Of a stretch of 20,000 nucleotides of DNA, positions 2,456 to 19,912 are shown piece by piece. This DNA comes from an uncultured virus (IMG/VR IMGVR_UViG_3300025122_005875). Taxonomy: Duplodnaviria; Heunggongvirae; Uroviricota; Caudoviricetes. Each line of letters opens with the position of its first letter. Position 1 is the stretch's first letter. The position numbers were made by a program, and so were the translations under genes. The notes beneath the pieces are model-generated. The model saw only the letters and a program-made list of their open reading frames with translations, made no database searches and was not told the origin of the DNA. The stretch is from IMG/VR virus record IMGVR_UViG_3300025122_005875, one strand, 5' to 3'.

Positions 2456-3181
2456 TTAGTTGTCTATTTTCTTGATGTAGGGATATCGAGGCTCTGGTGT
2501 GGAAACAGGAAATTGAAAAGAGTTCTTGTGGTCGATTCCTCGCTCCAGAAAAAATTCTTCGATTGCTGCCTGGGCTTCTGTTACACCCCAATCATCAAAG
2601 ATAATGTATCCTCCTGGCACTACTTTATCATAAAGTGCTTCTAAAACTTCTTTTGTGGCAGAATATGCGTCGACATCTATGCGCAAAAGCGCGATTTTTT
2701 CGATAGGACAATTCGAAGGCTCTAAAACCTCATTTGCAAATCCTTTTAAGTATTTAACGTTACTTTTTTCGTTAATCCCATAGTGTCCTAAATTATTCTT
2801 AACTCTCTGAAGAGATACCTGCAACGACGGTGCATACCTGATATAAACAGAGCCTGCTAGATGCTGATGAAGGGACGGCGTGTGGCGTTCTCCCGGATAA
2901 TTATAGGTCGAAGACTCAGGGGGCTGGAATCCCTCATAAGAGTCAACGGCCCAAACTGTGCGATCGGTTTTTTCAAATAACTTGGCCAAAAAAGCCACGC
3001 AGCCGCCCTCCCAAACTCCTACCTCAACAATGTCGCCTTCAACTTCATTCATCAATACATCATTGGCCATTCCTTGCATCGACAGAACACCCGAAATCTG
3101 TACTTGAGTGTGAACGTTCTTCCATAGCTCCATCGCTAGTTGCACGAAGTCTACATCTCGGTTTATTTCACGGGCGCTCAT
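2456..3181 (-). CDS. TylF/MycF (macrocin-type) sugar O-methyltransferase
   Basis: VEGDIVEVGVWEGG, DSYEGF, LKGF and IALLRIDVDAYSAT...LYDKVVPGGYIIFDDW are hallmark TylF/NovP motifs. Confidence 0.9.
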   Translation of the reverse strand: MSAREINRDVDFVQLAMELWKNVHTQVQISGVLSMQGMANDVLMNEVEGDIVEVGVWEGGCVAFLAKLFEKTDRTVWAVDSYEGFQPPESSTYNYPGERHTPSLHQHLAGSVYIRYAPSLQVSLQRVKNNLGHYGINEKSNVKYLKGFANEVLEPSNCPIEKIALLRIDVDAYSATKEVLEALYDKVVPGGYIIFDDWGVTEAQAAIEEFFLERGIDHKNSFQFPVSTPEPRYPYIKKIDN

Positions 3182-3790
3182 CTAATATTTCTCCTTTTTA
3201 AATAATGGAAACTCAGTTAAGTCTTTATAGGGAGGGTCCTCGAGTAGGTCAGGGACATTAGCCGGGTAATTTTGCAATAGCATTAAGCCTCGGGCAGCTT
3301 GCTCGGGGGTCATATATGCATTCCAGCCATTAATATTAACAGTGTCATCATGATATTTAACCTCTTGGCGACCTTCATATCTCCCTTTCTTAAACCATTC
3401 ATAAGCCTCTTTGTTGTCACACAAAATCATACCGCCTTTTCCAATTTTAAGATGCTTTTTAATATGAAACGATAAACACATATATGTGCCAGGGATATAC
3501 ATGCCTCCTGTCAAACGTTTGGCGGCGTCATAAATTGGATAAGGCTTTAGTTGATAAATTCCTTTCCAGGTAATATCACTAAATCTCACAGTGCCGCCGG
3601 CATGAAGGATAGATTGTGGTACTGATAAATAGGTTCTTTTAGGAATAGTAACTTCTTCCACTTTTAAATACTCACAACACAATAATAGAGCATCAGTGCA
3701 ACTGTCTGTAGAAATAGCATACGGCGCTGCAGTATAGTGGGCGATTTCTTCCTCAAACATACGAACGATTTTGTAGGGATTATGAAGCAC
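3182..3790 (-). CDS. Short DegT/DnrJ/EryC1/StrS-family PLP aminotransferase-like protein
   Basis: FEEEIAHY...SCTDALLL, YDAA, CLSFHIKKHLKIGKGGMI (PLP-lysine loop) and GWNAYMTPEQAARGL. Only 202 aa; GTG start. Confidence 0.85.
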   Translation of the reverse strand: MLHNPYKIVRMFEEEIAHYTAAPYAISTDSCTDALLLCCEYLKVEEVTIPKRTYLSVPQSILHAGGTVRFSDITWKGIYQLKPYPIYDAAKRLTGGMYIPGTYMCLSFHIKKHLKIGKGGMILCDNKEAYEWFKKGRYEGRQEVKYHDDTVNINGWNAYMTPEQAARGLMLLQNYPANVPDLLEDPPYKDLTEFPLFKKEKY

Positions 3791-3793
3791 TTT

Positions 3794-4828
3794 TTATCCT
3801 TCAGATTCATCCTGATAGCGTTGGTAGCACTCCTCAGTAATCTCGCAAGGATTTTCGGGCCCGAAGGTATAATCAAAGGCAGTAACATCCTCATAATAAT
3901 ATTTATACACTTTATAAATCAAGTCTTTGGTTTCGTACATTAATCTAAAATCTTTATCTTTATTGGCCGATCGGCGCATCGCGGCGGCGCTGGCCGCGGC
4001 GAAGGCCCGAAAGTCGGGACGCACATCATATAGGCGCCATAGCGCGTCCGCCAATTGTTTAAAATCGACATAGTTAAGTGGATGTTTAACATTCTTGATG
4101 GTTAGATAAGGATCTTCTCTAAATTCTTGTATTGCGTCACAAATTTTCTCTATATCCTCTTCTATATTTTCAACGCGGCCGATAGAATCCAGAGGAAGAG
4201 CATTGCTGCGACTATCAGCGGCAACAAATCTCCCGTCGGATCGCCCCTTATTAAAAACATTTTTACTTTCCGGATCATAAGTTAAATATTCAACCTGTGT
4301 AATAGCTAAGGGGTGTACCTTCTCGGGGTTCGAACGATCAAACCAACCCCTTTGCTGATGCAGTTCCTCGACAAATTGAGAAAAACTTTTTTCCTGAACA
4401 TATGGGTCAGGTTGCAAACTGTGATAATGATGATAAATAGAAGAAAACCTATCCCAAGGATTTCGAACAAAAGCAAACTTATAGGCTGTTTCATAAATGT
4501 CAATTTGTGGGTTATCATAAAGGCCAAACATAATTCGTAGTTTGGTATTAACGACGTCGGTGGTATAAGAGGCTAGCCAGGAGGTTGAGATTGCTTCTTG
4601 GACAGCCTCCGAGTTCTCGTCTTCAATCGAAATGGAGGGCCACGGGTTTTTTGTAAAAAAAGTATCCCAATCAACAGCATCTCCCAAAGACGTATAATCT
4701 TCATACATGTCTTGGAGTGTTTTATGACAACTTTCTCGGATGGCAAAATAACTTTTGACGATCGTTCCCGCTGTTTTTGGGATATGAATAAAAATCACAG
4801 GTCGGGTACCTATAAAATCGTAAGGCAC
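3794..4828 (-). CDS. Sulfotransferase family 2 (carbohydrate sulfotransferase-like)
   Basis: 5'-PSB motif IFIHIPKTAGT, 3'-PB motif FAFVRNPWDRFSS, GRVENIEED and C-terminal YYEDVTAFDYTF. Start reassigned to GTG at 4828, which has GGAG upstream and lies just after the stop of the previous gene; the ORF track extends to 4882. Confidence 0.85.
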   Translation of the reverse strand: MPYDFIGTRPVIFIHIPKTAGTIVKSYFAIRESCHKTLQDMYEDYTSLGDAVDWDTFFTKNPWPSISIEDENSEAVQEAISTSWLASYTTDVVNTKLRIMFGLYDNPQIDIYETAYKFAFVRNPWDRFSSIYHHYHSLQPDPYVQEKSFSQFVEELHQQRGWFDRSNPEKVHPLAITQVEYLTYDPESKNVFNKGRSDGRFVAADSRSNALPLDSIGRVENIEEDIEKICDAIQEFREDPYLTIKNVKHPLNYVDFKQLADALWRLYDVRPDFRAFAAASAAAMRRSANKDKDFRLMYETKDLIYKVYKYYYEDVTAFDYTFGPENPCEITEECYQRYQDESEG

Positions 4829-4830
4829 TC

Positions 4831-5718
4831 TTAACTCTCCTTTTCGTCGACAGTCGTTTTCGGGCTTCCTGCCCGGTTCCACCCCACTATCTCGTCTATA
4901 ATCTCTGCATCTGATTTCTTGCTCGTCAATGCCGCGGCGCCTGTCAGCGCGCTGAGGTCCGTTTGAATTCCAGGTTGGCGAGCGTGGCCGAAAAACATAT
5001 TATTTCCTGTCCGGACAGGTACAAAATATTTTATTAAATAACTTATAAGGTCATCTTGTGTTACGTTGCCAACAAGGGGGCCCGGGACACCATGAACCTC
5101 TACCGCAATTGTCCTAATATTTGACAGATCCTCATTGTATAAGAATTCGAATTCAGCCCCTTCAATATCTACTTTAAGATAATCAATGATGTCGTCATCA
5201 TATTCTTCTATGATATGCTCGCGCAATGCACGCAAGGACAAGACCGGAGTGCTCTGTTTATCCTCCTCCGATGCCCCGGGGTGTATATTATAAAAATTAC
5301 AATCTCCAGAGGCTGTATCGCCGTCTGTGTAGATAAAACGGTGGCCGGTCTCTTTGCCCACAGCTGCTTCTATAACTTCTACATTATTTACATTTTCAAG
5401 AGAAATTACTTTTTCCAAAAATCGCAGGTTAGCTACAACAGGCTCGACTGCGATAACTCGTTGATATATTTGTGATGCAATATACGTCAGTCCTCCGACA
5501 TTTGCCCCAAGATCTACAAAGATTTGGTCTCTGTAGACCGGAAAGTAGACGCCGTGGTCGCTCGCCCCTACAATTATCTGCGGCAGCGGATAACAACTTA
5601 GTGACTCCCCAATCATGGTAGTAAAGAATGTTTTTTCCTCTTCCGTAATTTCTGGAATATCGTTCCTTACCTCGGTACGAAAGGAGGCAGAGGGCTCTTT
5701 GTTGGGTTTTATCGCCAT
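4831..5718 (-). CDS. FkbM-family SAM-dependent methyltransferase
   Basis: FVDLGANVGG, VIAVEPV..N, IEAAVG, IDYLKVDIEGAEFEFL and AVEVH. Confidence 0.9.
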   Translation of the reverse strand: MAIKPNKEPSASFRTEVRNDIPEITEEEKTFFTTMIGESLSCYPLPQIIVGASDHGVYFPVYRDQIFVDLGANVGGLTYIASQIYQRVIAVEPVVANLRFLEKVISLENVNNVEVIEAAVGKETGHRFIYTDGDTASGDCNFYNIHPGASEEDKQSTPVLSLRALREHIIEEYDDDIIDYLKVDIEGAEFEFLYNEDLSNIRTIAVEVHGVPGPLVGNVTQDDLISYLIKYFVPVRTGNNMFFGHARQPGIQTDLSALTGAAALTSKKSDAEIIDEIVGWNRAGSPKTTVDEKES

Positions 5719-6500
5719 GGAATAAATTTTCCTTTATCGGGGAGTAAGTACTTCATGAATTCTATCTCTTCGGGGCTCCCACGCTTTGTATAATGTCGTG
5801 TACTCACATTAAAATAAGAAACCGCTTCATTATCAAAATTCACCTGGTGCGCGCCCTTTACAATTTGTATTGTAGCACATGTGGGCTTAAAATTGTTTAA
5901 ATAGACGCACATTTTCTTATATTTTTCCTCCATAGAAGTTTCTTTGAATTGAGGACCAATCTTATCAGTCATATCTTTGGCTGGCGAGCCTCCATAAATA
6001 TGATTTGCCTCCATATCCCGAGTTATCACGGAGCCGACTAACGCCATTGACTTGTCTTGTGCGGTGATCGGAGATACTATACAATGGCCGACGAGCCACA
6101 CATCATTTCCTATAGTGAGGGGAGCATCCGATAAAAAACGACAACCCTCCAAAGTATCCCCATATTTGATGTGACTCCACAACTGAGAGTGTGCGCCGAT
6201 TCCACAGTTATTCCCTATAGTGGTTCCTCCAATTGTATCAATAATACAATACTGACCAATCCAGGCATTGTGCCCTATCTTGCACGGTTTATAACCATGT
6301 ATATTGGTATGATGATGAATTTTGCAATAATCCCCAATCGTTAGATTATTACATATAATCTGGACATCTGCTCCAATATAGGTGTTGTCGCCAATTTCGA
6401 TATACTCCGCCGGGCCATCGGTGCCTCGAAGGACCGCCGAGGGCTCAATTACTACATTTTTACCTAATTTCAAAGTTTTAACATTTATATTGTTTCCCAT
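5709..6500 (-). CDS. Hexapeptide-repeat (left-handed beta-helix) acyltransferase
   Basis: Repeated IGDNTYIG, IGDYCKIH, IGHNAWIG, IGNNCGIG and IGNDVWLV units, then GSVITRD...IYGGSPAK. Confidence 0.9.
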   Translation of the reverse strand: MGNNINVKTLKLGKNVVIEPSAVLRGTDGPAEYIEIGDNTYIGADVQIICNNLTIGDYCKIHHHTNIHGYKPCKIGHNAWIGQYCIIDTIGGTTIGNNCGIGAHSQLWSHIKYGDTLEGCRFLSDAPLTIGNDVWLVGHCIVSPITAQDKSMALVGSVITRDMEANHIYGGSPAKDMTDKIGPQFKETSMEEKYKKMCVYLNNFKPTCATIQIVKGAHQVNFDNEAVSYFNVSTRHYTKRGSPEEIEFMKYLLPDKGKFIPWR

Positions 6501-6506
6501 AGGTCT

Positions 6507-7331
6507 TTAACTTCCTTTTCCTGGTAGCCCCATTAAAGGATGAACACATCTTTTGTGTAAATCAGGATGGGGCTCCCGCTGCCAATAAGCTTGAAGGTAA
6601 TCGCGACTAATAGAAAGACCCAACTGCTTATGAAGTGTGGTTCCAATATCGATGTAAGTGTTATGAGGGAAATCTTTATAGAGTTCATAAATCAAGATTT
6701 CAGAGAGAGAGGCCGCCGAAAACAAAAAAAGATGATTGTTGATATTGTGTTGTACAATATATTCTTTAATTTGTTCAATCAGATTTCTATCATTTACAAA
6801 ACAATTATATCCCACCGAGAAAAACTCTTTAACTTGAAGATCGACCGCAGGAAGATCTATAGATTCATTGCCTATCAAGATAACGTCCTGGCGATCTTTT
6901 ATAACCTTATATATATGTTGCAAAAAATATACATAATTTGAATTTACAAATTGATTGGCCCACACAATATGCTCTGTATCCCTATCTCCGTGTAACTCCC
7001 ACAATTGTTTGACCCGCTCATGTGGTACGCAACAAGGGCACGAAAGACCTTTAAAATAGTTCTTTTTACAGAACTGTAAAGCCTCCAACAGTAACTCGCG
7101 ACTTTTCTGGTGGTTTTCTTGGGTAGGGTCGAATATTTTATGATCTTCTACGGGATATGAAGGTACTGAAAGATACTCTGAGCCGCGCTGCACCCTGTCA
7201 GCACTCAATTCAACATATAAATTTTGTAAAATGTCGAGTTCCCCATCTGAGAATCGCACAAAAGCAAAATTTTCCTTAGTGAGAAGCTTCCTCAGGAAAA
7301 AGAAAAAAGTCTCGTTAAACTCATAAAGCAT
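6507..7331 (-). CDS. GT-D fold (DUF1792-like) glycosyltransferase
   Basis: N-terminal FAFVRFSDGE and C-terminal YIDIGT resemble the R(F/Y)GDGE and IDIG motifs of GT-D proteins. Confidence 0.65.
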   Translation of the reverse strand: MLYEFNETFFFFLRKLLTKENFAFVRFSDGELDILQNLYVELSADRVQRGSEYLSVPSYPVEDHKIFDPTQENHQKSRELLLEALQFCKKNYFKGLSCPCCVPHERVKQLWELHGDRDTEHIVWANQFVNSNYVYFLQHIYKVIKDRQDVILIGNESIDLPAVDLQVKEFFSVGYNCFVNDRNLIEQIKEYIVQHNINNHLFLFSAASLSEILIYELYKDFPHNTYIDIGTTLHKQLGLSISRDYLQAYWQREPHPDLHKRCVHPLMGLPGKGS

Positions 7332-8334
7332 TTTTAGCTACCATTGCTGCGGCTACTTTGGCGGCCGCATAGCCATCGCCATAAGGGCACTCCTCTGCCG
7401 GGTCGGCCACATAATTATTATCCGAGTTAAGCCATGTAAACAAATGCGGCAATTCCTCCGGCATTACGCACATAAAAGAAAATGTACCCATTCCTTCCAC
7501 GCGCTCAGTGAGTTTCCGGCACACAATACACTTTTTACCTAAGAAGGAGGCCTCTTCTTGAATTCCTCCGCTATCGGTAATAATAAATCTGCACGCGGCG
7601 ATCATCCTTATAAATTCTTCATGAACTACAGGCTCTACCACCCGCACTTTCTTAAAAATATGTTTGTACTGTTGAACATTAGGATTGGGATGTAATGGAA
7701 TAATAAATTCATATTCAGGATGTTGAACTGCAAGCCTCTCCATCTGTGTGAACCATCGATCTAGCAAATGATGATTCTCTCGGCGATGCATCGTTATTAA
7801 AATACTATTCCCATATGTAGAAGAAACAGTGTTCAAATTATCTAGCACGGTATTCCCTACTACATGAACGCCCGCTGTTATATTCTCTGCTTTGAGATTG
7901 GATTTTGCCACATCTGTAGGACACAAATGAACCTGAGCAATACGCGAGATAGCCTGACGATTAAATTCCTCGGGATATGGATTCATAAGATCATAAGTAC
8001 GGAGGCCGGCTTCCAAATGAACAACTTTAATTTTTCGATGAAAGGCCGCCAAGGCCACTGCAAACGCGGATGTAGTATCTCCTTGCACCATAACAGACGT
8101 AATGTTTGCAAATACATGATTGCTATTCATAATTGAGGCCACGATAGAATCGAGTCGGTTCTCCCCACTCTCAATAGAAAGACGTCTAATATCTGTGGTA
8201 TTTATAACATCCTTTAACAAACTCGTGTGCTGCCCCGTAAAAAGTAAAGCATATGGTATTTTTCTATCGAATTCCCGAAGCAGAGGCTTAATTTTAATGT
8301 ACTCGGGTCGTGTTCCAAACGAGATTAAGAGCAT
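7321..8334 (-). CDS. wecB: UDP-N-acetylglucosamine 2-epimerase (non-hydrolysing)
   Basis: FGTRPEYIK, TGQH, VQGDTTSAF, HLEAGLRT, PYPEEFNRQ, TMHRREN, TDSGGIQEEA and PYGDGYAA. Confidence 0.96.
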   Translation of the reverse strand: MLLISFGTRPEYIKIKPLLREFDRKIPYALLFTGQHTSLLKDVINTTDIRRLSIESGENRLDSIVASIMNSNHVFANITSVMVQGDTTSAFAVALAAFHRKIKVVHLEAGLRTYDLMNPYPEEFNRQAISRIAQVHLCPTDVAKSNLKAENITAGVHVVGNTVLDNLNTVSSTYGNSILITMHRRENHHLLDRWFTQMERLAVQHPEYEFIIPLHPNPNVQQYKHIFKKVRVVEPVVHEEFIRMIAACRFIITDSGGIQEEASFLGKKCIVCRKLTERVEGMGTFSFMCVMPEELPHLFTWLNSDNNYVADPAEECPYGDGYAAAKVAAAMVAKNAL

Positions 8335-9920
8335 TCTTCATCCTTCACTAATTTCCATCCGTTTTTTATAGCATTACGAACTACCAAATCTCTTTCAGGA
8401 TAAAAAATATGATGATTGGCAGCCGAAGAGGTCGCTTTGTCATCTACCCCTAATTCATACCCTTTTAAAGAACTACTTCGAGAAGGGTCCCCTTGTGGAT
8501 GTGGAGGAACATAACTGCCAATACCCCCATATTTTTGAGCCAAATACGCAAACTGAATATCTTCACCGTTTTCCCAAGTTACTGGCTTTTCCGTCCAAAG
8601 ATGTGATAGCCACTCGCGTTTAAAAAACCACGCATGGCCGACGAGATCAACTTTTTTAATTTTGTCATTGTGGCTGGCCCAGCCAAAGCGCTCGTGATCT
8701 GCATAAGAATCGCTGTGTAATTTAACGCCGATACCTCCCAAAATTCCTTCCTGAATCTTCATTGTTTCCATACAATTCTTCAGCCAATTTTCTCCCGGCA
8801 TAGTATCATCATCGAACAGCGCCACATATTCTGTATCTGCCAGCAATGCAGCTGCAAAACGGCCGTAGAATTTCCAGTTATAATCATTATTAAAAACCCG
8901 GTCGACGCCTAGAGTGTTATAGTCAAATCCTGCAGCGTCTTCGTGATAATTGGCCCAAATCCAAATTTGTTTAGGTGCGATAGTCTGATTACGCACACGT
9001 TCTACCTGCTCTTGGAGTAAATGAGTGCGGCGGTAAGCATTCAATATAACTGTTATCCCCGGATTAGAGTCCGCAGGAACAGTCAATAAATCTTCGACTT
9101 TAGAGACAATATTGGCGCGTGCATTTCGCACAAAATGAATTAAATCAGCTCCCTTCAGCTTAAACCATTCTTCGCTGGTTGCGCCCACAAGTTCATTTGT
9201 GTATACTTTACAACCGAGCATGCGAGCTTCTACTACTAATCTACAACAAGTTTCCAAGGTAGTAGGAAAAAAGGCTAGACCTTCACACTCTGCGAGGCGT
9301 TCCATTAATTCATCATAGGGAAGGTCCCCAAATAAATTATATTTTAAATTTCGAGTGGCGCAAAACTCTAACGCCTTAGCAGTATTCTTAATAGGGTTGT
9401 TCGATTTAATTACCGCACAGTCAAACTGTCGATTTGAGGACACAACAGCTTCTATTTTTTGAAGTTGTTCCTCGGTCCACAAGCTGCAGCCTAAATTAAT
9501 AATGTTACATGTAGAAGGAAGATTTTTTCTCATCACTTCAGCATGAATCTTTGTCTGAGCTAAGACCGCCGCGGCGTTTTCATAAAACGAGACATTACGC
9601 AATAAATCTTTAGGTAAAATAAAGTCTTTAAATGGAGACGGATCGCGGGTGGCAGCATACTTATGATCATGCTCAAAAATAAGATATTTTTTAGTTCTTA
9701 GTACCTGTTTACAGTCTTCCGCTAAAGATACAAAATTCGAAATTATATACACTGTATCCGACGCAGAAATCTCTGCGGCGGTTATTTGCTGTGAGCGTAC
9801 TTCTAAAACTGTATGCTGGCGCGATCGTAACTCACTCACCAAAATAGTATTACAAATCTCAGCGCCGCCGGGTACTTTTAAATCGGCAAGGAGAAAATCC
9901 GAAACAAAAGTTATTTCCAT
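8325..9920 (-). CDS. Two-domain glycosyltransferase (N-terminal GT-B/GT4-like, C-terminal GT2-like)
   Basis: N-terminal half has GGAE and FFPTTLETCCRLVVEARMLGC (EX7E-like). C-terminal half has ITVILNAYRR...QT and EYVALFDDDTMPG...GEDI. Confidence 0.8.
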   Translation of the reverse strand: MEITFVSDFLLADLKVPGGAEICNTILVSELRSRQHTVLEVRSQQITAAEISASDTVYIISNFVSLAEDCKQVLRTKKYLIFEHDHKYAATRDPSPFKDFILPKDLLRNVSFYENAAAVLAQTKIHAEVMRKNLPSTCNIINLGCSLWTEEQLQKIEAVVSSNRQFDCAVIKSNNPIKNTAKALEFCATRNLKYNLFGDLPYDELMERLAECEGLAFFPTTLETCCRLVVEARMLGCKVYTNELVGATSEEWFKLKGADLIHFVRNARANIVSKVEDLLTVPADSNPGITVILNAYRRTHLLQEQVERVRNQTIAPKQIWIWANYHEDAAGFDYNTLGVDRVFNNDYNWKFYGRFAAALLADTEYVALFDDDTMPGENWLKNCMETMKIQEGILGGIGVKLHSDSYADHERFGWASHNDKIKKVDLVGHAWFFKREWLSHLWTEKPVTWENGEDIQFAYLAQKYGGIGSYVPPHPQGDPSRSSSLKGYELGVDDKATSSAANHHIFYPERDLVVRNAIKNGWKLVKDEECS

Positions 9921-9921
9921 T

Positions 9922-11190
9922 TTACCTAAACTCTATAACGTTATCCTCAGCAGCTGCGTTGCCCTCCATGGGGCCCCATTGAGGAAGCCAAAAAGACTCG
10001 CAGAAATGAGCTAACATTTTTTCTTCAGCAAAATCACGTAACACCGTCTTTTTAAGCTTCCGCGCCTGGGATTCCAGGATCTGAGGGTTTTCGTAAAACT
10101 CTCGGATTTTCGTTTTATAACTCGTTTCTGATGGGTAGCACCACATCGAATCCTTTTGGAGGACGCCGTCCCATACAGCTCCCTCAGGGACAGCCTGAAT
10201 AGTGTAGTCCACCTTTGATATCATCGGTCGGAGCTTCCCTTTTTTATTTTTAGCTGTCAAAAAATCCGTTTGGCCGCTCCAAAAGGGCGCGATAATAGGG
10301 AGTCCATTATATGCAGCCTCAAATAAGGGAAGACCGAAACCCTCTCCATGAGTTAAAGAAATCATTGCTTTGACCTTATCGTGTTGATAGAGCCACGTCA
10401 TCTCGGAATCATTTAGAGTTCCATGGAGCAAATATATCTTACACTTCCGATTAGGATGCAGTGTATCTAACTTTAACTCTTTTTTTACTTTTGTAGTCAA
10501 ATTCCAATGATCATTAATAGAATCATTCGCAATGTTGGTCTTAACAATAAGACCAACCTCAGTATCATGAAATTCTTCTATAAACCATCGAATAGTGTTC
10601 CCCAAATTTTTTCTGGGGCCCCACTGTGCCACTGTCAAAAAATTAAAATCTGTAGTAAGGTCCAATTCTAATGAACTTGGAGTGTATGTACGTACAGGAT
10701 AGTTAGTAACAGTAACAGGAGTCTCTAGCTTATAGTCATCCACTACCTCGCCTGTTTCTCTGTTCTCCGCGCGGTACCTCGTATGCTGATATACATGTTT
10801 TGCATGGTTCGATACAACCAAAATTGAGTTAACCATGTTGTTCCCTAATTGGATCCACGCCGGGGCAACCTTAGTGGTTTCAATGCCGGCGGTGAAGCCA
10901 ACATTATATTCACACATCTGTTGCCATTCATTGGGAATAGTTACTTGCAGAGAACACATACATTTTTGGCCATTCTGCATGAAGAAATTAGTCTTTTGCT
11001 GTAAGAAATGAACCCAATTAATAAACTCTTCATCATCATATACCTGGCCTGTATGACCCCATGGAACATTAATCAAATATATATCAAATAAATCTTCGCG
11101 ACTACGTAAAGCACGTAGCGCGAAGCGCGTTTGCTCGCCGTATCCAGAGCGAGACAAGGCCGGCCCTCTAACTAATACAGTTTTTCTCAT
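9922..11190 (-). CDS. GT4-family glycosyltransferase
   Basis: SGYGEQTR, FLTVAQWGPRKN and HGEGFGLPLFEAAYNGLPII (EX7E). Confidence 0.9.
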   Translation of the reverse strand: MRKTVLVRGPALSRSGYGEQTRFALRALRSREDLFDIYLINVPWGHTGQVYDDEEFINWVHFLQQKTNFFMQNGQKCMCSLQVTIPNEWQQMCEYNVGFTAGIETTKVAPAWIQLGNNMVNSILVVSNHAKHVYQHTRYRAENRETGEVVDDYKLETPVTVTNYPVRTYTPSSLELDLTTDFNFLTVAQWGPRKNLGNTIRWFIEEFHDTEVGLIVKTNIANDSINDHWNLTTKVKKELKLDTLHPNRKCKIYLLHGTLNDSEMTWLYQHDKVKAMISLTHGEGFGLPLFEAAYNGLPIIAPFWSGQTDFLTAKNKKGKLRPMISKVDYTIQAVPEGAVWDGVLQKDSMWCYPSETSYKTKIREFYENPQILESQARKLKKTVLRDFAEEKMLAHFCESFWLPQWGPMEGNAAAEDNVIEFR

Positions 11191-12440
11191 ACCAACTCTC
11201 CAAACCTATAAGACTTATAATTCTTACGCGTCTCCCAAGAACCACAGGTTTCATGAACATTGGTTAAAACCTCATCCCATTGCTCCGCAAACTTTTCCAT
11301 TGAAAAGCTTTTTAGTGTCCAATTACGGGCGCGTAAACCCAAGGCTCGGCGCTCTTCAGCTGGCATTTGATACATTTTCTCAAGGCCGGCGACAAAATCC
11401 TCCTTCTTAAGTCTATCCTCATAAATATAAGGAACCTGTTGAGAACCAATTATAGCCTTCGATGTAGGTTCGAGGCCTACACCAAAGCTTTCGTTCCCAT
11501 CGGAAATTTGGTCCTGCATACCGCCTGTAAGGGTGACCATAATTGGAGTCCCACAAGACATCGATTCTAGAGTAGCTAAACCAAACCCTTCCGCATCGGA
11601 TATATTCACCGTCAAGTCTGCCATATTATACACCATAGCTAAATCCGGGGCGCCTATCTTATCGCGAGAAAATAAAACTTCGCCATTTGTAAGACCCAAT
11701 TCATCAATAATTGCCTCCAAATCCTGTCCATGCTGGTCCTTTACATCCGTATGCATAATAAGAGTAGCCTTATCATGACCAACCTTGTCTAAAAATTCTT
11801 TAAACCACCAAATCAAAGTTCCCGATTGTTTGCGGCGGGCGTTACGATTATTCCAGAAACAAATAAACTTGCCGTCCAGATTTTTTTCTTTTTTGAAGTT
11901 GGCCACCATGTCTTCTTCATATGGTTTAAAAATGTCAGGATCGACGGCATGAGGAATATAGCTGCTTTCAACCTCCGGAGTAACAGTCTGAACTATATCA
12001 TAGGTAAGTTTCGATATACACGATACATGATCATTAGACAAATACCACGGCCGGTTAAACTTAGGGTAAGGATAATTGTCCCACACATGATAATATACCA
12101 TTGGTACATTGGGTCGAATTTCGTTTTCTATCTGCCATAGCCATCCATAGAAGCGGGGATCTGTCATAAACCATAAAATATCTGGTTTCTGTTGATGAAT
12201 CATCGCTCGCACCATATCCGCCGTACCATAACCATCAACTGGCCAGATTACCCAGTCGTCTCCCCATTGTTCGGTCTTCTGAGGGTCATGATTGGGGTGC
12301 TGCACGGCGCCGCCGAAAGACAGAAATTGATACCTTCCGGTTTTTAGCATGCCTTCGATCATATACTTAGTTTGAGTGCCCACCCCGGATGGCGATAAAG
12401 GGTGATCGCTGATCGTAAAAATTTTAATTTTTTCTGTCAT
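11187..12440 (-). CDS. GT4-family glycosyltransferase
   Basis: SDHPLSPSGVGTQ, IPHAVD...F.P, NRNARRKQ and DAEGFGLATLESMSCGTPI (EX7E). Confidence 0.92.
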   Translation of the reverse strand: MTEKIKIFTISDHPLSPSGVGTQTKYMIEGMLKTGRYQFLSFGGAVQHPNHDPQKTEQWGDDWVIWPVDGYGTADMVRAMIHQQKPDILWFMTDPRFYGWLWQIENEIRPNVPMVYYHVWDNYPYPKFNRPWYLSNDHVSCISKLTYDIVQTVTPEVESSYIPHAVDPDIFKPYEEDMVANFKKEKNLDGKFICFWNNRNARRKQSGTLIWWFKEFLDKVGHDKATLIMHTDVKDQHGQDLEAIIDELGLTNGEVLFSRDKIGAPDLAMVYNMADLTVNISDAEGFGLATLESMSCGTPIMVTLTGGMQDQISDGNESFGVGLEPTSKAIIGSQQVPYIYEDRLKKEDFVAGLEKMYQMPAEERRALGLRARNWTLKSFSMEKFAEQWDEVLTNVHETCGSWETRKNYKSYRFGELV

Positions 12441-12449
12441 GAGTATTCC

Positions 12450-13229
12450 TTATGAACAATGTTCGGTTTTATATAGTTTACACGGATAGGGCTTATGACA
12501 AGCCAGCCGGTTCTTAATCGTGAATCTTTTAGAAATATTATAGATTGCCTGGTAAAGAAGTTTAAGAGCATTCTCTGTTTTTCTGGTACCACTGGTTACC
12601 CTAAAAATTTCTACCCGGTCTTTTTTGGCTGTTCTCTTTAGTAATGCAAAGTGTGTTTCAACGTTTTTTGGATCAATATCGTGTTTCTGACAAAAAAAGT
12701 GTTTATATAGCGTAAGCTGATATGTGACGATTTTTTTAGCTTTCCGTCTCGAGTCCCAGCCCCAAGAACAAGTCTTCCAGTCAAACAAATGATATGTGTC
12801 CCCTACTTTCACCACTGCATCCACAAAGCCTTTAAAATATACATTGAAGTTCTCAATAGGAACATAAAGTTTTTCCTCCGACGAGAAAACTTCATACTCT
12901 CCAAAATACTGTTTTAAAGCATCGTCAACTTCAGCCAGGATTTGTGGGCCGGCAACGCGCATCTGCTGCACATTTTCCTCGTTTATTGCAATGTTTTTTT
13001 CCAAAAGCTCTGATATGTTCTTGGAAAACCCAATTTGAAATAACTTAGTCTCATCGACTTGCTCTTTGAGAAGCTTTTTCTCACAAATATCATGAATTGC
13101 TGTCCCAAAAGCAGTATATTCATTGCCTTCAAAAGTCGCTACTTTTTCTATCCATGTTTTTTTATGATAATGAGGACACGTGGCCCAATCTTTTAATTCC
13201 GAATACGAAATATGTTCTCGTTTAGCCAT
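12450..13229 (-). CDS. PD-(D/E)XK nuclease, Cas4/AddB/RecB-like exonuclease
   Basis: ISYSEL..W..CP, FGTAIH, E, KGFVDAV, FDWKT, YQL.LY and three C-terminal cysteines (CHKPYPCKLYKTEHC). Confidence 0.9.
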   Translation of the reverse strand: MAKREHISYSELKDWATCPHYHKKTWIEKVATFEGNEYTAFGTAIHDICEKKLLKEQVDETKLFQIGFSKNISELLEKNIAINEENVQQMRVAGPQILAEVDDALKQYFGEYEVFSSEEKLYVPIENFNVYFKGFVDAVVKVGDTYHLFDWKTCSWGWDSRRKAKKIVTYQLTLYKHFFCQKHDIDPKNVETHFALLKRTAKKDRVEIFRVTSGTRKTENALKLLYQAIYNISKRFTIKNRLACHKPYPCKLYKTEHCS

Positions 13230-13836
13230 TAACTATTTCTTCAATCTTCCTATACAGGACTGGGCTTACATCTTTTACAACCGCTGCATCGCCCAAATAA
13301 TATTTTTCAAATCCGTTGGCAAAGTATTCTTGCAACGACGTGGCACCATAGGGCGACGCAAAGAGCCCTAATGTAAGAGTAAGAAGCAAAGGATACCCCA
13401 CCTCATCAGCTAAAAATCTATCAAATTTCGGATTATACTCTACTTCTGAATACAATCGTGGGTTTATGTGATAACCCTCAGCGTTTAAAAGATGATATAA
13501 GGTATGACGCTTTGCTAAAAATTCTCGGCGCAGATCTTGGCTAAAGATTTGTTCCGCATACGGAATTTCCAAAGAGTGGGCCAATTCGTGGATAAAGTTT
13601 TCTAACATATCTTCAATAGTGGGTTCAGCCGCTTTCATATAAATAGCACCATCAGTAAAAGCTGCATTTCGATCCAAAAGCTCCTTAAAATTACCAATGT
13701 ACACTACATCGACGTTAGTTAACATCGATGGACGCACATATTTTTCTACCTCGGCGCAGAATTCAGGAATACTCACACCATCTTCCACCTGATCTATTAC
13801 AAAAACAGGTAGATGATAAATATAATATTCCATCAC
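13222..13836 (-). CDS. Zincin metallopeptidase-like protein (ATLF/MtfA-like)
   Basis: FIHELAHSLE (HExxH) plus distal YGATSLQEYFANGFE, a Y....E.FA third-ligand motif. Start is GTG 13836 or ATG 13833. Confidence 0.7.
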   Translation of the reverse strand: MMEYYIYHLPVFVIDQVEDGVSIPEFCAEVEKYVRPSMLTNVDVVYIGNFKELLDRNAAFTDGAIYMKAAEPTIEDMLENFIHELAHSLEIPYAEQIFSQDLRREFLAKRHTLYHLLNAEGYHINPRLYSEVEYNPKFDRFLADEVGYPLLLTLTLGLFASPYGATSLQEYFANGFEKYYLGDAAVVKDVSPVLYRKIEEIVNG

Positions 13837-14117
13837 TCTTCAGCGTTCGAAGTAACCTCAACGCGCGGCTGGACGACCGTATGGTCGGTTCCAGTGACGT
13901 CATCCAACGCCTGCTGGTAACCTCGAAGGAAATTCTCTTCTGCAACCGCGAGAAGAAACTCTGGAAATTCTGCGGCAAATACCGAAACTGCCATGGCCAC
14001 TGTTACGTCGCCATCGGCTGCTTCTTCCTTTTCGCCGATATAATTAACTATCATTTCTTTTAACGGGCTCTCTGCAACAACAGGGAGGGCTAAGGTGGGG
14101 TTTTCTATTTCTTCCAT
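13833..14117 (-). CDS. Acidic hypothetical protein
   Basis: 94-aa ORF filling the gap between neighbours; its stop overlaps the next start. Confidence 0.7.
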   Translation of the reverse strand: MEEIENPTLALPVVAESPLKEMIVNYIGEKEEAADGDVTVAMAVSVFAAEFPEFLLAVAEENFLRGYQQALDDVTGTDHTVVQPRVEVTSNAEE

Positions 14118-14124
14118 TTTTATC

Positions 14125-15441
14125 TCACAAATTCTGAGCGGCGAAGGTAGCGACTTTCGATCGTTCTCCTTTATGAAGAGTTACGTGCGATGCTAATTCG
14201 AAATTTTTAAATTTCTCGACCGCATGTGTTAATCCATTGGAGGTTGCATCGATATAAACATTATCAATTTGTTCGATATCTCCGGTTAACACAATCTTCG
14301 TTCCTTCACCTACTCTAGTTATTATAGTCTTTAATTCATGAGTTGTCAAGTTCTGTGCTTCATCAATTATGATGAAAGCATTTGAGATTGATCGACCACG
14401 AATATAAGTCAATGCTTCTATCTCTATTGTACCCTTTTGTCGGTAAATGTCAAGCGTTAATTTATTATTTCCCATTAAAAACTGTAAATTATCCTGAATA
14501 GGCATCAACCACGGGGACATTTTTTCTTCTAGGGTTCCAGGGAGAAAGCCCAGGTCTTTCCCCAGCGGCTGTACGGGCCGTGAGACGATTACTCGGGAGT
14601 ATTCAGCCTTGGCCTCATCTATAGTCTGTTCGAGGCCTGCAGCGATCGCACAGATCGTCTTACCGCTACCTGCTTTACCTATGGCGGTAACAATTTGTAT
14701 CCGAGGGTCCATGAGAGCATCCATTAAAAATTGTTGCTCTTTATTCCGAGGCTTAATCCCCCAAATCTTTTGGCTTTTTAACAGCTGCCGAATAGGATCC
14801 ACATGATTAATATAACGACCCAGCGCTGTTTTTTTTTCATTGGAGCTGGAAACCATCATTACATATTGATTGGGAACAAGACCGCGATCCTCTAAATATA
14901 CGTTTTGTTTTTCATAAAAACGATCGATTATTTGATCATCAACCAAGACCATTGCACATCCTTCAAAAATATTTTCACTGTTATCAACAACTTGATTATT
15001 CTGAAAGTCCTCAGACGTAAGGCCCACAGCATCTGCAATTACTCTCATATTAATATCGCGAGATACTAATATCACTTTTCGCGCGGATTCTCGCTGTGCC
15101 TTTAGTGCTGTCGCAATAATCAAATGGTCAGGAATCTTTGTATCTAAATCGCGAGGAAGGTCATCAGAAGTAATGCCTGCAGCGCTAATAGACTTAATAA
15201 TACCTTGGCCACGCCGGATTCGTACGCCTTTAGCTAGCGAACCGGCGCTCCGGAGTTCATCCCATAAGCGGATAATCTTTCTTGCTTGTGCGCCGACTGC
15301 ATCTTGACGTTTTTTATGCTTATCAATTTCCTCAAAAACCTTTAAAGGAACGTGAATATCATTATTTTTGAATGCGTAGATACAGTCAGCGTTTGTTAAA
15401 TAGACACTGGTGTCTAAAACATAGATTTTCTTTCGGCTCAT
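14125..15441 (-). CDS. phoH: PIN-PhoH fusion (PhoH2-type RNase/ATPase)
   Basis: PIN domain: YVLDTSV, EEIDKHK, D..II, LVSRDINMR. PhoH domain: GKAGSGKT Walker A, LGFLPG...EK..PW, YIRGRS, IIDEAQN, TGDIEQID and ERS. Start reassigned to MSRKK at 15441, with GAGG upstream. Confidence 0.95.
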   Translation of the reverse strand: MSRKKIYVLDTSVYLTNADCIYAFKNNDIHVPLKVFEEIDKHKKRQDAVGAQARKIIRLWDELRSAGSLAKGVRIRRGQGIIKSISAAGITSDDLPRDLDTKIPDHLIIATALKAQRESARKVILVSRDINMRVIADAVGLTSEDFQNNQVVDNSENIFEGCAMVLVDDQIIDRFYEKQNVYLEDRGLVPNQYVMMVSSSNEKKTALGRYINHVDPIRQLLKSQKIWGIKPRNKEQQFLMDALMDPRIQIVTAIGKAGSGKTICAIAAGLEQTIDEAKAEYSRVIVSRPVQPLGKDLGFLPGTLEEKMSPWLMPIQDNLQFLMGNNKLTLDIYRQKGTIEIEALTYIRGRSISNAFIIIDEAQNLTTHELKTIITRVGEGTKIVLTGDIEQIDNVYIDATSNGLTHAVEKFKNFELASHVTLHKGERSKVATFAAQNL

Positions 15442-15480
15442 AAAGACCCTCTGCTTTATTAAATAGGGGACCCCTTTAAT
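15440..15480. promoter_or_regulatory. Palindrome and hairpin in the phoH leader
   Basis: Palindrome AGGGGACCCCT at 15465-15475, flanked by ATTAA...TTAAT. A second inverted repeat ATAAAG/CTTTAT at 15440-15459 covers part of the start codon. Confidence 0.3.
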
Positions 15481-16006
15481 AGTCACCGTTCTTTGGAACG
15501 TCACCGGCCGAAATGATGGCGATTCTGCTGGGCGTTATCTCCACCCCATCAATCTCTGTGACCCCTACAGAAGGGGAAACCACCCCTGAATCATTAACCA
15601 AGGTGGAAGAGCTTTGAATTTTACTTCCTCCAATTTCCCATAATAGATCTATCCCTAGTTCTTCGCACACATCCATTTCGGGGGTGTTGTTTGTTCTACG
15701 ATCGCCTCCATTAGCAAAAAAAGTGGGATTTATTCTTTTAAGTGCCTCACAAACAGTGCCATCTGTATCATCTACATGGGTTGTTTCACTAACACAGGCG
15801 AATCCTTGCAAAATTTCACAACGCTCAGCAAAGGGCATAAAAATATATCCCTTTTTTCTCATGAGCCATTCATCTGAGTTTACGACTGCAATTACATGAC
15901 CATGTTGAGATGCTTCCTCCATCATTCGCAAATGTCCGATGTGGACCGGATCGAAACCGCCGGAAACACACACGGTGTCATAGGGAGTGCGCGGTAATTT
16001 AGTCAT
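15476..16006 (-). CDS. Cytidylyltransferase-like nucleotidyltransferase (TagD/RfaE/RibL family)
   Basis: VSGGFDPVHIGHL (HIGH motif), VNSD...KKG, ER.EIL, FANGGDR and SSSTLV. Confidence 0.9.
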   Translation of the reverse strand: MTKLPRTPYDTVCVSGGFDPVHIGHLRMMEEASQHGHVIAVVNSDEWLMRKKGYIFMPFAERCEILQGFACVSETTHVDDTDGTVCEALKRINPTFFANGGDRRTNNTPEMDVCEELGIDLLWEIGGSKIQSSSTLVNDSGVVSPSVGVTEIDGVEITPSRIAIISAGDVPKNGDY

Positions 16007-16575: not shown

Positions 16576-16983
16576 TTACCATCGATGGTCTCGGCCGGAC
16601 CAATCTTTGAAGCTTTCTTTTCCACCCCGGATCGACCAATCAGAATCAATTGTAAGTTTGGATGATAAGCCGCCGCGGGGGTTAAAATCCATCTCAATTC
16701 GTAAACGGTTGGGTGCATAGACCTCCATCAAATCCTCATAAATGACGTTAATAAGCCTTTCATAAGAAACCAGTATATTACGAAAGCTTTGAAAGTATTT
16801 CTTTAACGATTTCAGCTCTATAATTGTATCTTTGGGATAAAAGACAATCCAAACCGTAGCAAAATCTGGCTGGTCCTTGACTCCAATAAACGTTACCTCA
16901 GGATTTTTAATATTTACTTCATAGCCATCACCCGATGGATTTGGGAGTACCTCCAAAAGTGTCTTTTTACTCCATTGTGCCAT
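16576..16983 (-). CDS. queF: QueF-like unimodular T-fold protein lacking the catalytic cysteine
   Basis: LE.LPNP, PE.T, QPDFA, ELKSLKKYF.SFRN (QueF motif), YE..IN.I..DL and F.PRGG align with type I QueF. The CPxTGQPD segment reads GVKDQPD. The symbol marks family membership only; nitrile reductase activity is doubtful. Confidence 0.85.
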   Translation of the reverse strand: MAQWSKKTLLEVLPNPSGDGYEVNIKNPEVTFIGVKDQPDFATVWIVFYPKDTIIELKSLKKYFQSFRNILVSYERLINVIYEDLMEVYAPNRLRIEMDFNPRGGLSSKLTIDSDWSIRGGKESFKDWSGRDHRW

Positions 16984-16994
16984 ATATTTACTTC

Positions 16995-17237
16995 CTAACT
17001 AAGATTGGGATCATAGAGGGGGGCATCATCTTCCTCGGCTTGCGAATAAATTACCAACACGTATAGACCCTCCCACGTGGATGGAATCTTTTTGCGGGCA
17101 ATTCGAGCGTTGTCCGGTGTTCCGGCATCTACCACCAGAGTCCGGCCGAGGCCCCCGTTCTTTATAGTATACAGGTATTCTGATCCTAATTCAATAGCTG
17201 CTTTAAGTTTAAGAGTATCTTCTTTTAGGTGTGTCAC
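16995..17237 (-). CDS. Hypothetical protein
   Basis: 80 aa; its GTG start abuts the upstream stop and it fills the gap. Confidence 0.6.
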   Translation of the reverse strand: MTHLKEDTLKLKAAIELGSEYLYTIKNGGLGRTLVVDAGTPDNARIARKKIPSTWEGLYVLVIYSQAEEDDAPLYDPNLS

Positions 17238-19695: not shown

Positions 19696-19878
19696 TTATA
19701 AACTGGAATCTACAGTATCAATTTCTGCGTCAGCGGTTTCGAACAAAGCTTTAATCTTACCACCAAATTGTACAGTAATAGCGATGCAGATAATTGCAAT
19801 TGCAACCAAAATAATAACATATTCGGTCATTCCCTGACCGGCTTCATCTTTGTGAAATTTGGATAAAAAATTGCCCAT
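19696..19878 (-). CDS. flp: Flp/Fap (Tad-type) pilin
   Basis: MGNFLSKFHKDEAG|QGMTEYVIILVAIAIICIAI..FG..I...F: short leader, Gly at -1, Glu+5/Tyr+6 Flp motif, hydrophobic helix, 60 aa. SD AGGAG lies 7 nt before the ATG at 19878. Confidence 0.92.
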   Translation of the reverse strand: MGNFLSKFHKDEAGQGMTEYVIILVAIAIICIAITVQFGGKIKALFETADAEIDTVDSSL

Positions 19879-19912
19879 AATAGCACTCCTTAAAGTAACT
19901 ACTATGGGCAAT
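19870..19912 (-). promoter_or_regulatory. RNA hairpin sequestering the SD and start codon of flp
   Basis: Perfect 10-bp inverted repeat ATTGCCCATA (19870-19879) / TATGGGCAAT (19903-19912), extended inward in the mRNA by G-U, UAG/CUA and UACUU/GAGUG pairs. Confidence 0.7.

Follow-up and report, generated by a model that had tools for sequence, protein, structure and literature searches.

The stretch of DNA analysed here, called the window, comprises 20,000 nucleotides from an uncultured virus of the Caudoviricetes (IMG/VR record IMGVR_UViG_3300025122_005875). It is a phage-like array in which every gene lies on the minus strand, and one of these genes encodes a 135-residue T-fold protein of the QueF family that contains no cysteine (Table 1). 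The protein belongs to a clade of Cys-less QueF relatives which very probably serves the methionine, S-adenosylmethionine (SAM) and folate cycle, and not queuosine synthesis. The open reading frame (ORF) runs from an ATG to a TAA codon with no internal stop, so that no in-frame TGA is present. The putative Shine-Dalgarno sequence overlaps the TAG stop codon of the upstream ORF (16995..17237). In the phage lineage of the window the QueF-like gene stands by itself amid small ORFs of no assigned function.

Table 1. Features of the Cys-less QueF-family gene, in window coordinates
Feature	Position	Strand	Basis or remark
Gene for Cys-less QueF-family (T-fold) protein, 135 aa	16576..16983	-	ORF, PF14489, TIGR03139, AlphaFold2 model, Foldseek
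Putative Shine-Dalgarno-like AGGAAG, 7 nt 5' of ATG	16991..16996	-	Sequence reading
Substrate loop P28-F41 (PEVTFIGVKDQPDF)	16861..16902	-	Alignment to 4f8b; one residue shorter than in QueF
G34 codon (Cys55 position)	16882-16884	-	Inside substrate loop, beside clade-specific F32
D40 codon (= Asp62), within Q38-P39-D40	16864-16866	-	Alignment to 4f8b
QueF motif E56-Y63 (ELKSLKKY), family NADPH-binding signature	16795..16818	-	Alignments
S73-Y74-E75-R76 (SYER); E75 = substrate-anchoring Glu97 of QueF	16756..16767	-	Alignments
R103-G104-G105 (PRGG), common to canonical QueF	16669..16677	-	Alignments
C-terminal extension, residues 108-135, three Trp	16579..16662	-	Consensus of near subfamily

The protein matched the Pfam QueF family (PF14489) with an E-value of 1.6e-22 (79.9 bits; cutoff 27.3), and at 95 bits it also scored above the cutoff of 86.9 for the NCBIfam QueF-II equivalog, TIGR03139. 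QueF and QueF_N were the only Pfam families matched at E ≤ 1, and there was no match to the MetF family, PF02219. The best relatives of solved structure were Bacillus subtilis QueF entries 4f8b, 4fgc and 5udg (HMMER, E about 1e-15). In the HMMER alignment the window and B. subtilis segments pair as PEVTFIGVK-DQPDF with PEFTSLCPKTGQPDF, which places Gly34 at the position of B. subtilis Cys55 and a one-residue gap in the loop. Asp62, Glu78 and Glu97 of the B. subtilis enzyme are retained as D40, E56 and E75, together with PRGG, while C55 is changed to G34, S79 to L57, F95 to S73, H96 to Y74 and C99 to L77. The sequence ELKSLKKY (residues 56-63) fits the QueF motif for NADPH, which is defined as E(S/L)K(S/A)hK(L/Y)(Y/F/W) in PMC13740343. 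The loss of all cysteines, the shortened loop, the QPD, SYE and PRGG residues, the NADPH motif and a Trp-rich C-terminal extension had all been read from the sequence by the first-pass annotation of this DNA, and the alignment to 4f8b agrees with that reading.

Across an alignment of 123 sequences E56, K61, D40 and E75 are all invariant. The C-terminal extension is conserved in the near subfamily, where its consensus is DSDWxxRGGxExxKDWxGxxxxW; it is absent from many deeper members, which diverge at the DSDW position or stop shortly after it. An AlphaFold2 model computed from the same 123 sequences had a mean predicted local distance difference test score of 89.3, with values of 60-88 in the C-terminal extension. 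When the model was searched with Foldseek, the best matches in the PDB were 4f8b and 4fgc, with a root-mean-square deviation (rmsd) of 1.5 Å over 111 columns at 37% identity. These were followed by Vibrio cholerae QueF, GTP cyclohydrolase I and QueF-L.

At E ≤ 1e-3, 1608 relatives were obtained from a word-indexed search of 5.8 billion proteins, and 1805 hits by running phmmer exhaustively against 1.84 billion cluster representatives. The best 120 of the 1608 relatives are full-length and 61-82% identical to the window protein. All 101 of those that match the motif pattern have Gly at the Cys55 site, reading TF(L/I/E)G. No cysteine at all is present in 107 of the 120, so the loss is not due to chance or to sequencing error, and the private decay or sequencing error allowed for by the first-pass annotation can be discarded. 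A maximum-likelihood tree was built from 108 rows, all but 9 of them representatives, and the residue opposite G34 was used to class the rows (56 Gly, 48 Cys and four fragments). One branch parts all 56 Gly rows from all 48 Cys rows, with a single state change and a support of 90 (Shimodaira-Hasegawa-like approximate likelihood ratio test). The residue at this column is thus Gly in 56/56 rows of one clade and Cys in 48/48 canonical rows. Three further positions distinguish the Gly clade: F32 (93%; Ser, Ala or Cys in canonical QueF), S73 (98%; Phe in 73% of canonical QueF) and R76 (89%; variable residues in canonical QueF). Common to both groups are E29, T31, QPD, the ELKSLK motif, R68, E75 and RGG.

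Among the window gene and seven phage orthologues the proportion of synonymous differences (pS) was 0.75-1.0, so that synonymous sites are saturated, and among the window gene and its six closest orthologues the proportion of non-synonymous differences (pN) was 0.06-0.15. As judged from these values, the phage copies are under strong purifying selection. By alignment and tree, then, the Cys-less QueF relatives are a distinct, large and conserved sister clade of unimodular QueF, as the first-pass annotation had supposed in naming a separate T-fold subfamily and in proposing this comparison. Canonical bimodular QueF with its Cys is also present in Marinilabilia and Thermophagus genomes and in a Bdellovibrionota metagenome-assembled genome (MAG), the three assemblies checked. 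Hence the Cys-less gene is a paralogue that has a different role.

Close relatives of the gene were found in 18 IMG/VR loci, including three giant-virus bins, and also in bacterial genomes. A degenerate DNA pattern for E.TF.G...QPDF, run on a collection of species-representative genomes, matched at least 120 stretches, and 118 of the 120 matches listed were confirmed by tblastn. Hosts among the matches listed included Flavobacteriales, Cytophagales, Chitinophagales, Marinilabiliaceae, Kangiellaceae, Syntrophorhabdus, Myxococcota, Bdellovibrionales, Saccharibacteria, SAR202, Neomarinimicrobiota, Actinomycetes and one Nitrosopumilales MAG. The gene is nevertheless rare overall, with a strong match in only three of 301 sampled Bacteroidota genomes. 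Among 50,697 records of cultured phages there was no close relative, the best matches being canonical QueFs with 31-41% identity.

Several of the loci have features of their own. Giant-virus bins carry clade members at loci L014-L017; a rhodopsin gene lies two genes upstream in L015 (8473-9279), and in L017 RING and ZZ zinc-finger domains precede the QueF-like part in one open frame, perhaps as a genuine fusion, perhaps through an upstream start artefact. Locus L019, on a contig of a Bdellovibrionota MAG, has the QueF-like gene surrounded by 16 tRNA genes and genes for a phage endonuclease I and a DNA ligase, and resembles a phage contig that binning assigned to a bacterial MAG. The viral contig of L007 encodes malate synthase and isocitrate lyase (the glyoxylate shunt) and DnaJ at 13139-15924. 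A 452-residue protein, known from a single sequence, combines a SAM-methyltransferase domain with a QueF-like domain and was not used as evidence; a protein joining a Lar zinc ribbon to a QueF-like domain and a FliM chimera seem to be artefacts of gene calling or assembly and were likewise set aside.

To describe the gene neighbourhoods, ORFs were called in 107 loci, the neighbours were clustered and representatives were annotated with Pfam. The commonest arrangement, in 15 loci of Flavobacteriales and Cytophagales, places the QueF-like gene between two parts of methionine synthase: a homocysteine S-methyltransferase (the MetH N-terminal module) on one side and the pterin-binding, B12 and activation domains that make up the rest of MetH on the other. 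Other methionine genes accompany it elsewhere, in the orders MetY-like, QueF-like, MetE (L110, Bdellovibrionales); MetY-like, QueF-like, homoserine dehydrogenase (L051); QueF-like, MetY-like, MetX-like (L092); MetY-like, QueF-like (L109); and MetK, QueF-like, DUF6580 (L113), with a full-length MetH gene transcribed divergently in L050. ThyX is encoded directly upstream in three Syntrophorhabdus-type loci, and a 285-residue protein with a weak pterin-binding match directly upstream in three Neomarinimicrobiota loci. Five phage loci (L008-L011 and L013) read QueF-like, MetK, AhcY, and L018 reads QueF-like then AhcY. In two genomes of 1.5-1.6 Mb, G457 and G472, which belong to the order of the Cyclobacteriaceae MAG G319 (Cytophagales), the order is AhcY, MetK, QueF-like, DUF6580, MetH_N, MetH_C; this operon covers all steps of the methyl cycle except methylenetetrahydrofolate reductase. 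The same order was found in G412 as far as its 6.3-kb contig reaches, up to the start of MetH_N. No queC, queD, queE, tgt or folE was found among the annotated neighbours of clade members.

Two observations concern other proteins of these operons. DUF6580, a membrane protein with 5-6 transmembrane segments, always follows the QueF-like gene in MetK, QueF-like, MetH operons (L104, 8281-8892; L113; L166-L168), and may be a vitamin transporter, for B12 or folate. In L161 (6860-11107) a MetH of 1415 residues has a DUF559/endonuclease-like domain between its B12-binding modules, which may be an intein or a homing-endonuclease insertion.

Scans with Rfam placed SAM riboswitches upstream of the gene on the same strand. 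A SAM-I riboswitch precedes the operon in nine loci, SAM-I/IV precedes MetK and then the QueF-like gene in four, and SAM-V lies upstream in one (L110). An nhmmer profile built from the Rfam hits located SAM-I in ten further loci. In L092 the QueF-like gene is the first gene after the riboswitch, which lies 298 nt upstream of it. A preQ1 riboswitch was found in none of the 34 stretches scanned with Rfam. A weak nhmmer hit to SAM directly upstream in the Saccharibacteria locus L038 was unconfirmed by Rfam and was dropped.

We compared the distribution of the gene with that of MetF, sought as a match to PF02219 (MTHFR, methylenetetrahydrofolate reductase). Three strong carriers among 301 Bacteroidota genomes are too few for a profile test, so order-level samples were used. 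In the order of G319, 151 genomes were sampled, of which 122 have MetF and seven carry the QueF-like gene at E ≤ 1e-40; MetF was found in 0/7 carriers and in 122/144 non-carriers (Fisher test ignoring phylogeny, p 5e-6). In the order of the Flavobacteriales MAG G307, 251 genomes were sampled and 22 were carriers. Three of these 22 have MetF, as against 19 of the 20 non-carriers tested, which were the first 20 listed and were chosen on no property (p 6e-8, same test). In a set of 40 carrier genomes 18 have an MTHFR match; of the 22 without it, 17 have MetH and one more has MetE (18/22). Isolate genomes among the carriers include those of Chitinophaga, Aliikangiella, Pleionea, Marinilabilia and Syntrophorhabdus aromaticivorans (G310), and of these S. 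aromaticivorans alone had no PF02219 match; it has MetE. FolD and DHFR are present in all five MetF-less carriers tested, which are of 3.4-6.1 Mb and include several single-chromosome assemblies, and the gap in MetF-less carriers is specific to the MetF step. The location of the gene inside SAM-controlled methionine operons of genomes lacking MetF indicates that its product probably supplies the methyl cycle and not queuosine synthesis.

In one Flavobacteriales MAG with the metH-sandwich operon (G001, locus L020) MTHFR matches are limited to two short pieces broken by stop codons (C3:537078-537628), which may represent a decaying metF. In two Cytophagales loci from genomes with MetH but neither MetF nor the QueF-like gene (L160, 1398-8487; L162, 8723-10691), metH is flanked by patatin-like genes and small ORFs without a Pfam match. 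The order in L162 is a SAM-I riboswitch, a patatin-like gene, a gene for a 215-residue protein of no known kind, and MetH. These neighbours of metH may be candidates for yet another filling of the MetF gap.

Gene context and co-occurrence point to a flavin-free, NADPH-dependent 5,10-methylenetetrahydrofolate (methylene-THF) reductase, used by the phage to boost methyl supply, a reading to which we give about an even chance. Since the NADPH motif, the Asp and the anchoring Glu are retained, a different chemistry is the natural interpretation of the protein. The first-pass annotation had also suggested this, offering NADPH reduction of a non-nitrile deazaguanine or of a pterin; the pterin option fits the methionine-folate context, whereas no link to deazaguanines was found. 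Judged by its residues, the Cys-less protein would not reduce preQ0, the thioimide-forming Cys being replaced by Gly and the pocket remodelled by F32, S73, R76 and a shorter loop. The retained Glu would anchor a 2-amino-4-oxo-pyrimidine ring and the retained Asp would act as general acid. The most likely reaction would be conversion of methylene-THF to 5-methyl-THF, making the protein a non-homologous MetF substitute that feeds MetH or MetE. By the mechanism proposed, C7 of the 7-deazaguanine would have its counterpart in N5 of a bound pterin, and the methylene carbon carried by N5 would occupy the place at which the preQ0 nitrile carbon takes hydride. D40 could then protonate N10, opening the imidazolidine ring to an N5-iminium ion, and NADPH could deliver hydride directly to this ion, so that a covalent Cys adduct would be unnecessary. 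A speculative candidate for a ligand of the p-aminobenzoyl-glutamate tail is Arg76, which is specific to the clade and neighbours the anchoring Glu. In the phage, the gene would be an auxiliary metabolic gene that increases the 5-methyl-THF available to MetH or MetE of the host, and thereby the methionine and SAM that serve phage methyltransferases; Pfam identified three methyltransferase genes in the window (TylF-like, FkbM-like and SpoU).

More broadly, the Cys-less clade may constitute a third, structurally unrelated class of methylenetetrahydrofolate reductase: a flavin-free T-fold of about 135 residues that passes hydride from NADPH straight to the N5-methylene carbon, that has taken the place of MetF in many Bacteroidota and in some lineages of several further phyla, and that has been taken up by phages and giant viruses as a compact module, sometimes with metK and ahcY. 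We regard this proposal as evenly balanced between being right and wrong.

A number of observations weigh against a methylene-THF reductase. Many carriers outside the two order samples keep MetF (18/40, and four of the five intact in another set), and in L091 and L102 the operon that holds the QueF-like gene goes on to include metF. Replacement of MetF is therefore not strict. A MetF gap can also exist without the QueF-like gene, since five larger genomes of the G319 order encode MetH but neither of the two. The co-occurrence analysis relied mostly on MAGs and on Fisher tests that take no account of phylogeny, and its MetF search used only PF02219, a model that the mycobacterial Mfr type does not match (PMC7857596). 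Neighbourhoods are not uniform: the 18 Marinilabiliaceae loci have genes of tRNA modification and selenium beside the QueF-like gene (TrmA-like methyltransferase, SelU-like rhodanese, TusA/DsrE, class-V aminotransferase and SelD), not methionine genes, and in Kangiellaceae and Myxococcota they are unrelated. No riboswitch was found in the Kangiellaceae, Myxococcota and Saccharibacteria loci scanned. Neither metK nor ahcY, nor TGT or QueC, was detected in five partial records (27-82% complete) of the window's own phage lineage. The methionine-operon setting belongs to bacterial members of the clade, and the window has no neighbours of that kind. Finally, draining methylene-THF could compete with the thymidylate (dTMP) synthesis that the phage needs. 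Viral records with the gene had MTHFR in 0/10 and MetH in 0/15, all being fragments and hence uninformative.

An NADPH-dependent enzyme of the methionine and folate regulon acting on a different folate or pterin, for example in re-reduction of oxidised 5-methyl-dihydrofolate, in reduction of 5,10-methenyl-THF or dihydrofolate, or on some other pterin, would share the context of SAM riboswitches and metH, metE, metK, ahcY and thyX. It would also explain why MetF is kept in many carriers and why metF lies in the operon of L091 and L102. However, the presence of FolD and DHFR in 5/5 MetF-less carriers means that those steps are not missing, and the strong anticorrelation is specifically with MetF, whose loss a repair role would not predict. 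We consider such an activity unlikely.

A non-catalytic partner that binds folate or NADPH, delivering or sequestering methyl-THF for methionine synthase or regulating it, would suit the position of the gene exactly between the MetH halves in 15 loci and the loss of the covalent nucleophile. Against this, the NADPH motif, D40 and E75 are (nearly) invariant in the 123 sequences, which is more than a passive binder should need, and there are loci where the gene accompanies MetE, only MetY, or ThyX, and phages where it stands alone. Such a partner would leave the loss of MetF unexplained, and we think it quite improbable.

That the protein still acts on 7-deazaguanines is less probable again, and to our minds barely credible, whether by Cys-independent reduction of preQ0, as a preQ0/preQ1 sponge or as a dominant-negative QueF subunit. 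Its score lies above the TIGR03139 cutoff, its closest fold is QueF, and the Glu and Asp that hold preQ0 are retained, but QueF with the C55A or C55S substitution is inactive (PMC13740343). The gene neighbours and riboswitch scans gave no sign of queC, queD, queE, tgt, folE or preQ1 sensing, regulation being by SAM, and TGT and QueC are absent from the five related partial phage records. Canonical QueF coexists with the gene in the three bacterial assemblies checked. Within the window, Pfam gave no match to QueC, QueD, QueE, FolE or TGT in the 28 other ORFs scanned, in agreement with the first-pass annotation. That annotation's sponge or dominant-negative subunit finds no support, the bacterial context of the gene being methionine, SAM and folate metabolism. 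DpdL, a candidate phage 7-deazaguanine decarboxylase, was considered as a QueF relative and dropped, as it is QueD-like (PMC10516641). A decaying or artefactual, functionless copy of QueF, for which nothing speaks beyond the missing Cys, can be dismissed in view of the 1608 relatives, the low pN against saturated pS and the clade's own invariant residues.

The proposed methylene-THF reductase would resemble MetF in its reaction and in its place in the pathway, supplying 5-methyl-THF under SAM control, a likeness that is purely functional and unproven; in two bacterial orders a genome seldom has both genes. MetF itself is a TIM-barrel flavoprotein of about 290-320 residues. The window protein has no kinship with it in sequence or fold, being a T-fold of 135 residues with no sign of a flavin site. 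GTP cyclohydrolase I (FolE), like the window protein, is a T-fold enzyme of pterins and purines (Foldseek template modelling score about 0.6-0.67), and the FolE model TIGR00063 gave a weak hit (E 0.036; 13.6 bits versus a cutoff of 181.6). FolE lacks the QueF NADPH motif, and Cys residues are among the ligands of its zinc site. A site of this type is impossible in the window protein, which has no Cys. Compared with B. subtilis QueF, its sister clade in the tree, the protein has the same T-fold, ELKSLKxY motif, QPD Asp, anchoring Glu and PRGG, but has an invariant Gly for Cys55, a shorter loop, Ser for Phe95, Leu for Cys99 and the additional Arg76 and Phe32; the Cys-less clade also differs in having no queuosine-pathway context and in being SAM-regulated beside methionine and folate genes. 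The archaeal archaeosine synthase QueF-L (5jyx) is another T-fold relative (Foldseek rank 49, rmsd 1.6 Å, 15% identity). QueF-L keeps the Cys, with a thioimide intermediate according to the title of 5jyx, and lacks the NADPH site (PMC5699537), whereas the window protein has the NADPH motif and no Cys. A precedent for flavin-free, direct hydride transfer from NAD(P)H to methylene-THF is mycobacterial Mfr (PMC11094777, PMC7857596), which differs in being a (beta-alpha)8 barrel distantly related to MetF and not a T-fold.

A full-text search of the literature open without subscription found no description of a Cys-less QueF clade, of a link between QueF and methionine operons, or of a T-fold MTHFR. 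The available part of a 2026 review of QueF (PMC13740343) has only the YkvM and YqcD subfamilies and treats Cys, Asp and Glu as invariant, and the phage QueFs studied so far are canonical according to the available text of PMC10516641. MetF is described as the only known route to 5-methyl-THF (PMC7857596, in part), and neither a deazaguanine nor a MetF alternative is mentioned in the accessible portion of the 2026 GapMind paper (PMC13759103). Clade members are named '7-cyano-7-deazaguanine reductase' by JGI, and by NCBI in the case of a Lloydbacteria MAG, and this naming of Cys-less members as QueF looks like systematic misannotation. As the clade passes the QueF-II equivalog cutoff and is named accordingly, there are probably errors for these genomes in reconstructions of the queuosine and methionine pathways and in lists of viral auxiliary genes. 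If the protein is indeed a methylene-THF reductase, thousands of database entries of that name are misnamed, and a small T-fold enzyme provides a new solution to a central one-carbon step for which many sampled bacteria with MetH or MetE have no MetF. It would then also show clearly how a nitrile reductase scaffold can be put to new use by loss of its covalent nucleophile, and would point to a compact methyl-supply gene in tailed phages and giant-virus bins.

Elsewhere the window encodes a PD-(D/E)XK nuclease, a PIN-PhoH fusion, a cytidylyltransferase and a SpoU methylase. Two sub-threshold domain matches on the minus strand, to ATLF at 13222-13836 (20 bits versus a cutoff of 27.4) and to a Flp/Fap pilin at 19696-19911 (26.6 bits versus 32.2), are probably not meaningful. 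A sugar-modification cluster at 2456-12440 (minus strand) comprises a TylF-type O-methyltransferase, a short DegT-like aminotransferase piece (202 aa), a sulfotransferase, an FkbM methyltransferase, a hexapeptide acyltransferase, a UDP-GlcNAc 2-epimerase, and one family 2 (GT2) and two family 4 (GT4) glycosyltransferases. The PIN-PhoH fusion of 459 residues (14125-15504, minus strand) matches phrog_2765 with an E-value of 2.6e-107; it is conserved in the related phage loci L001-L006, where it lies next to the cytidylyltransferase.

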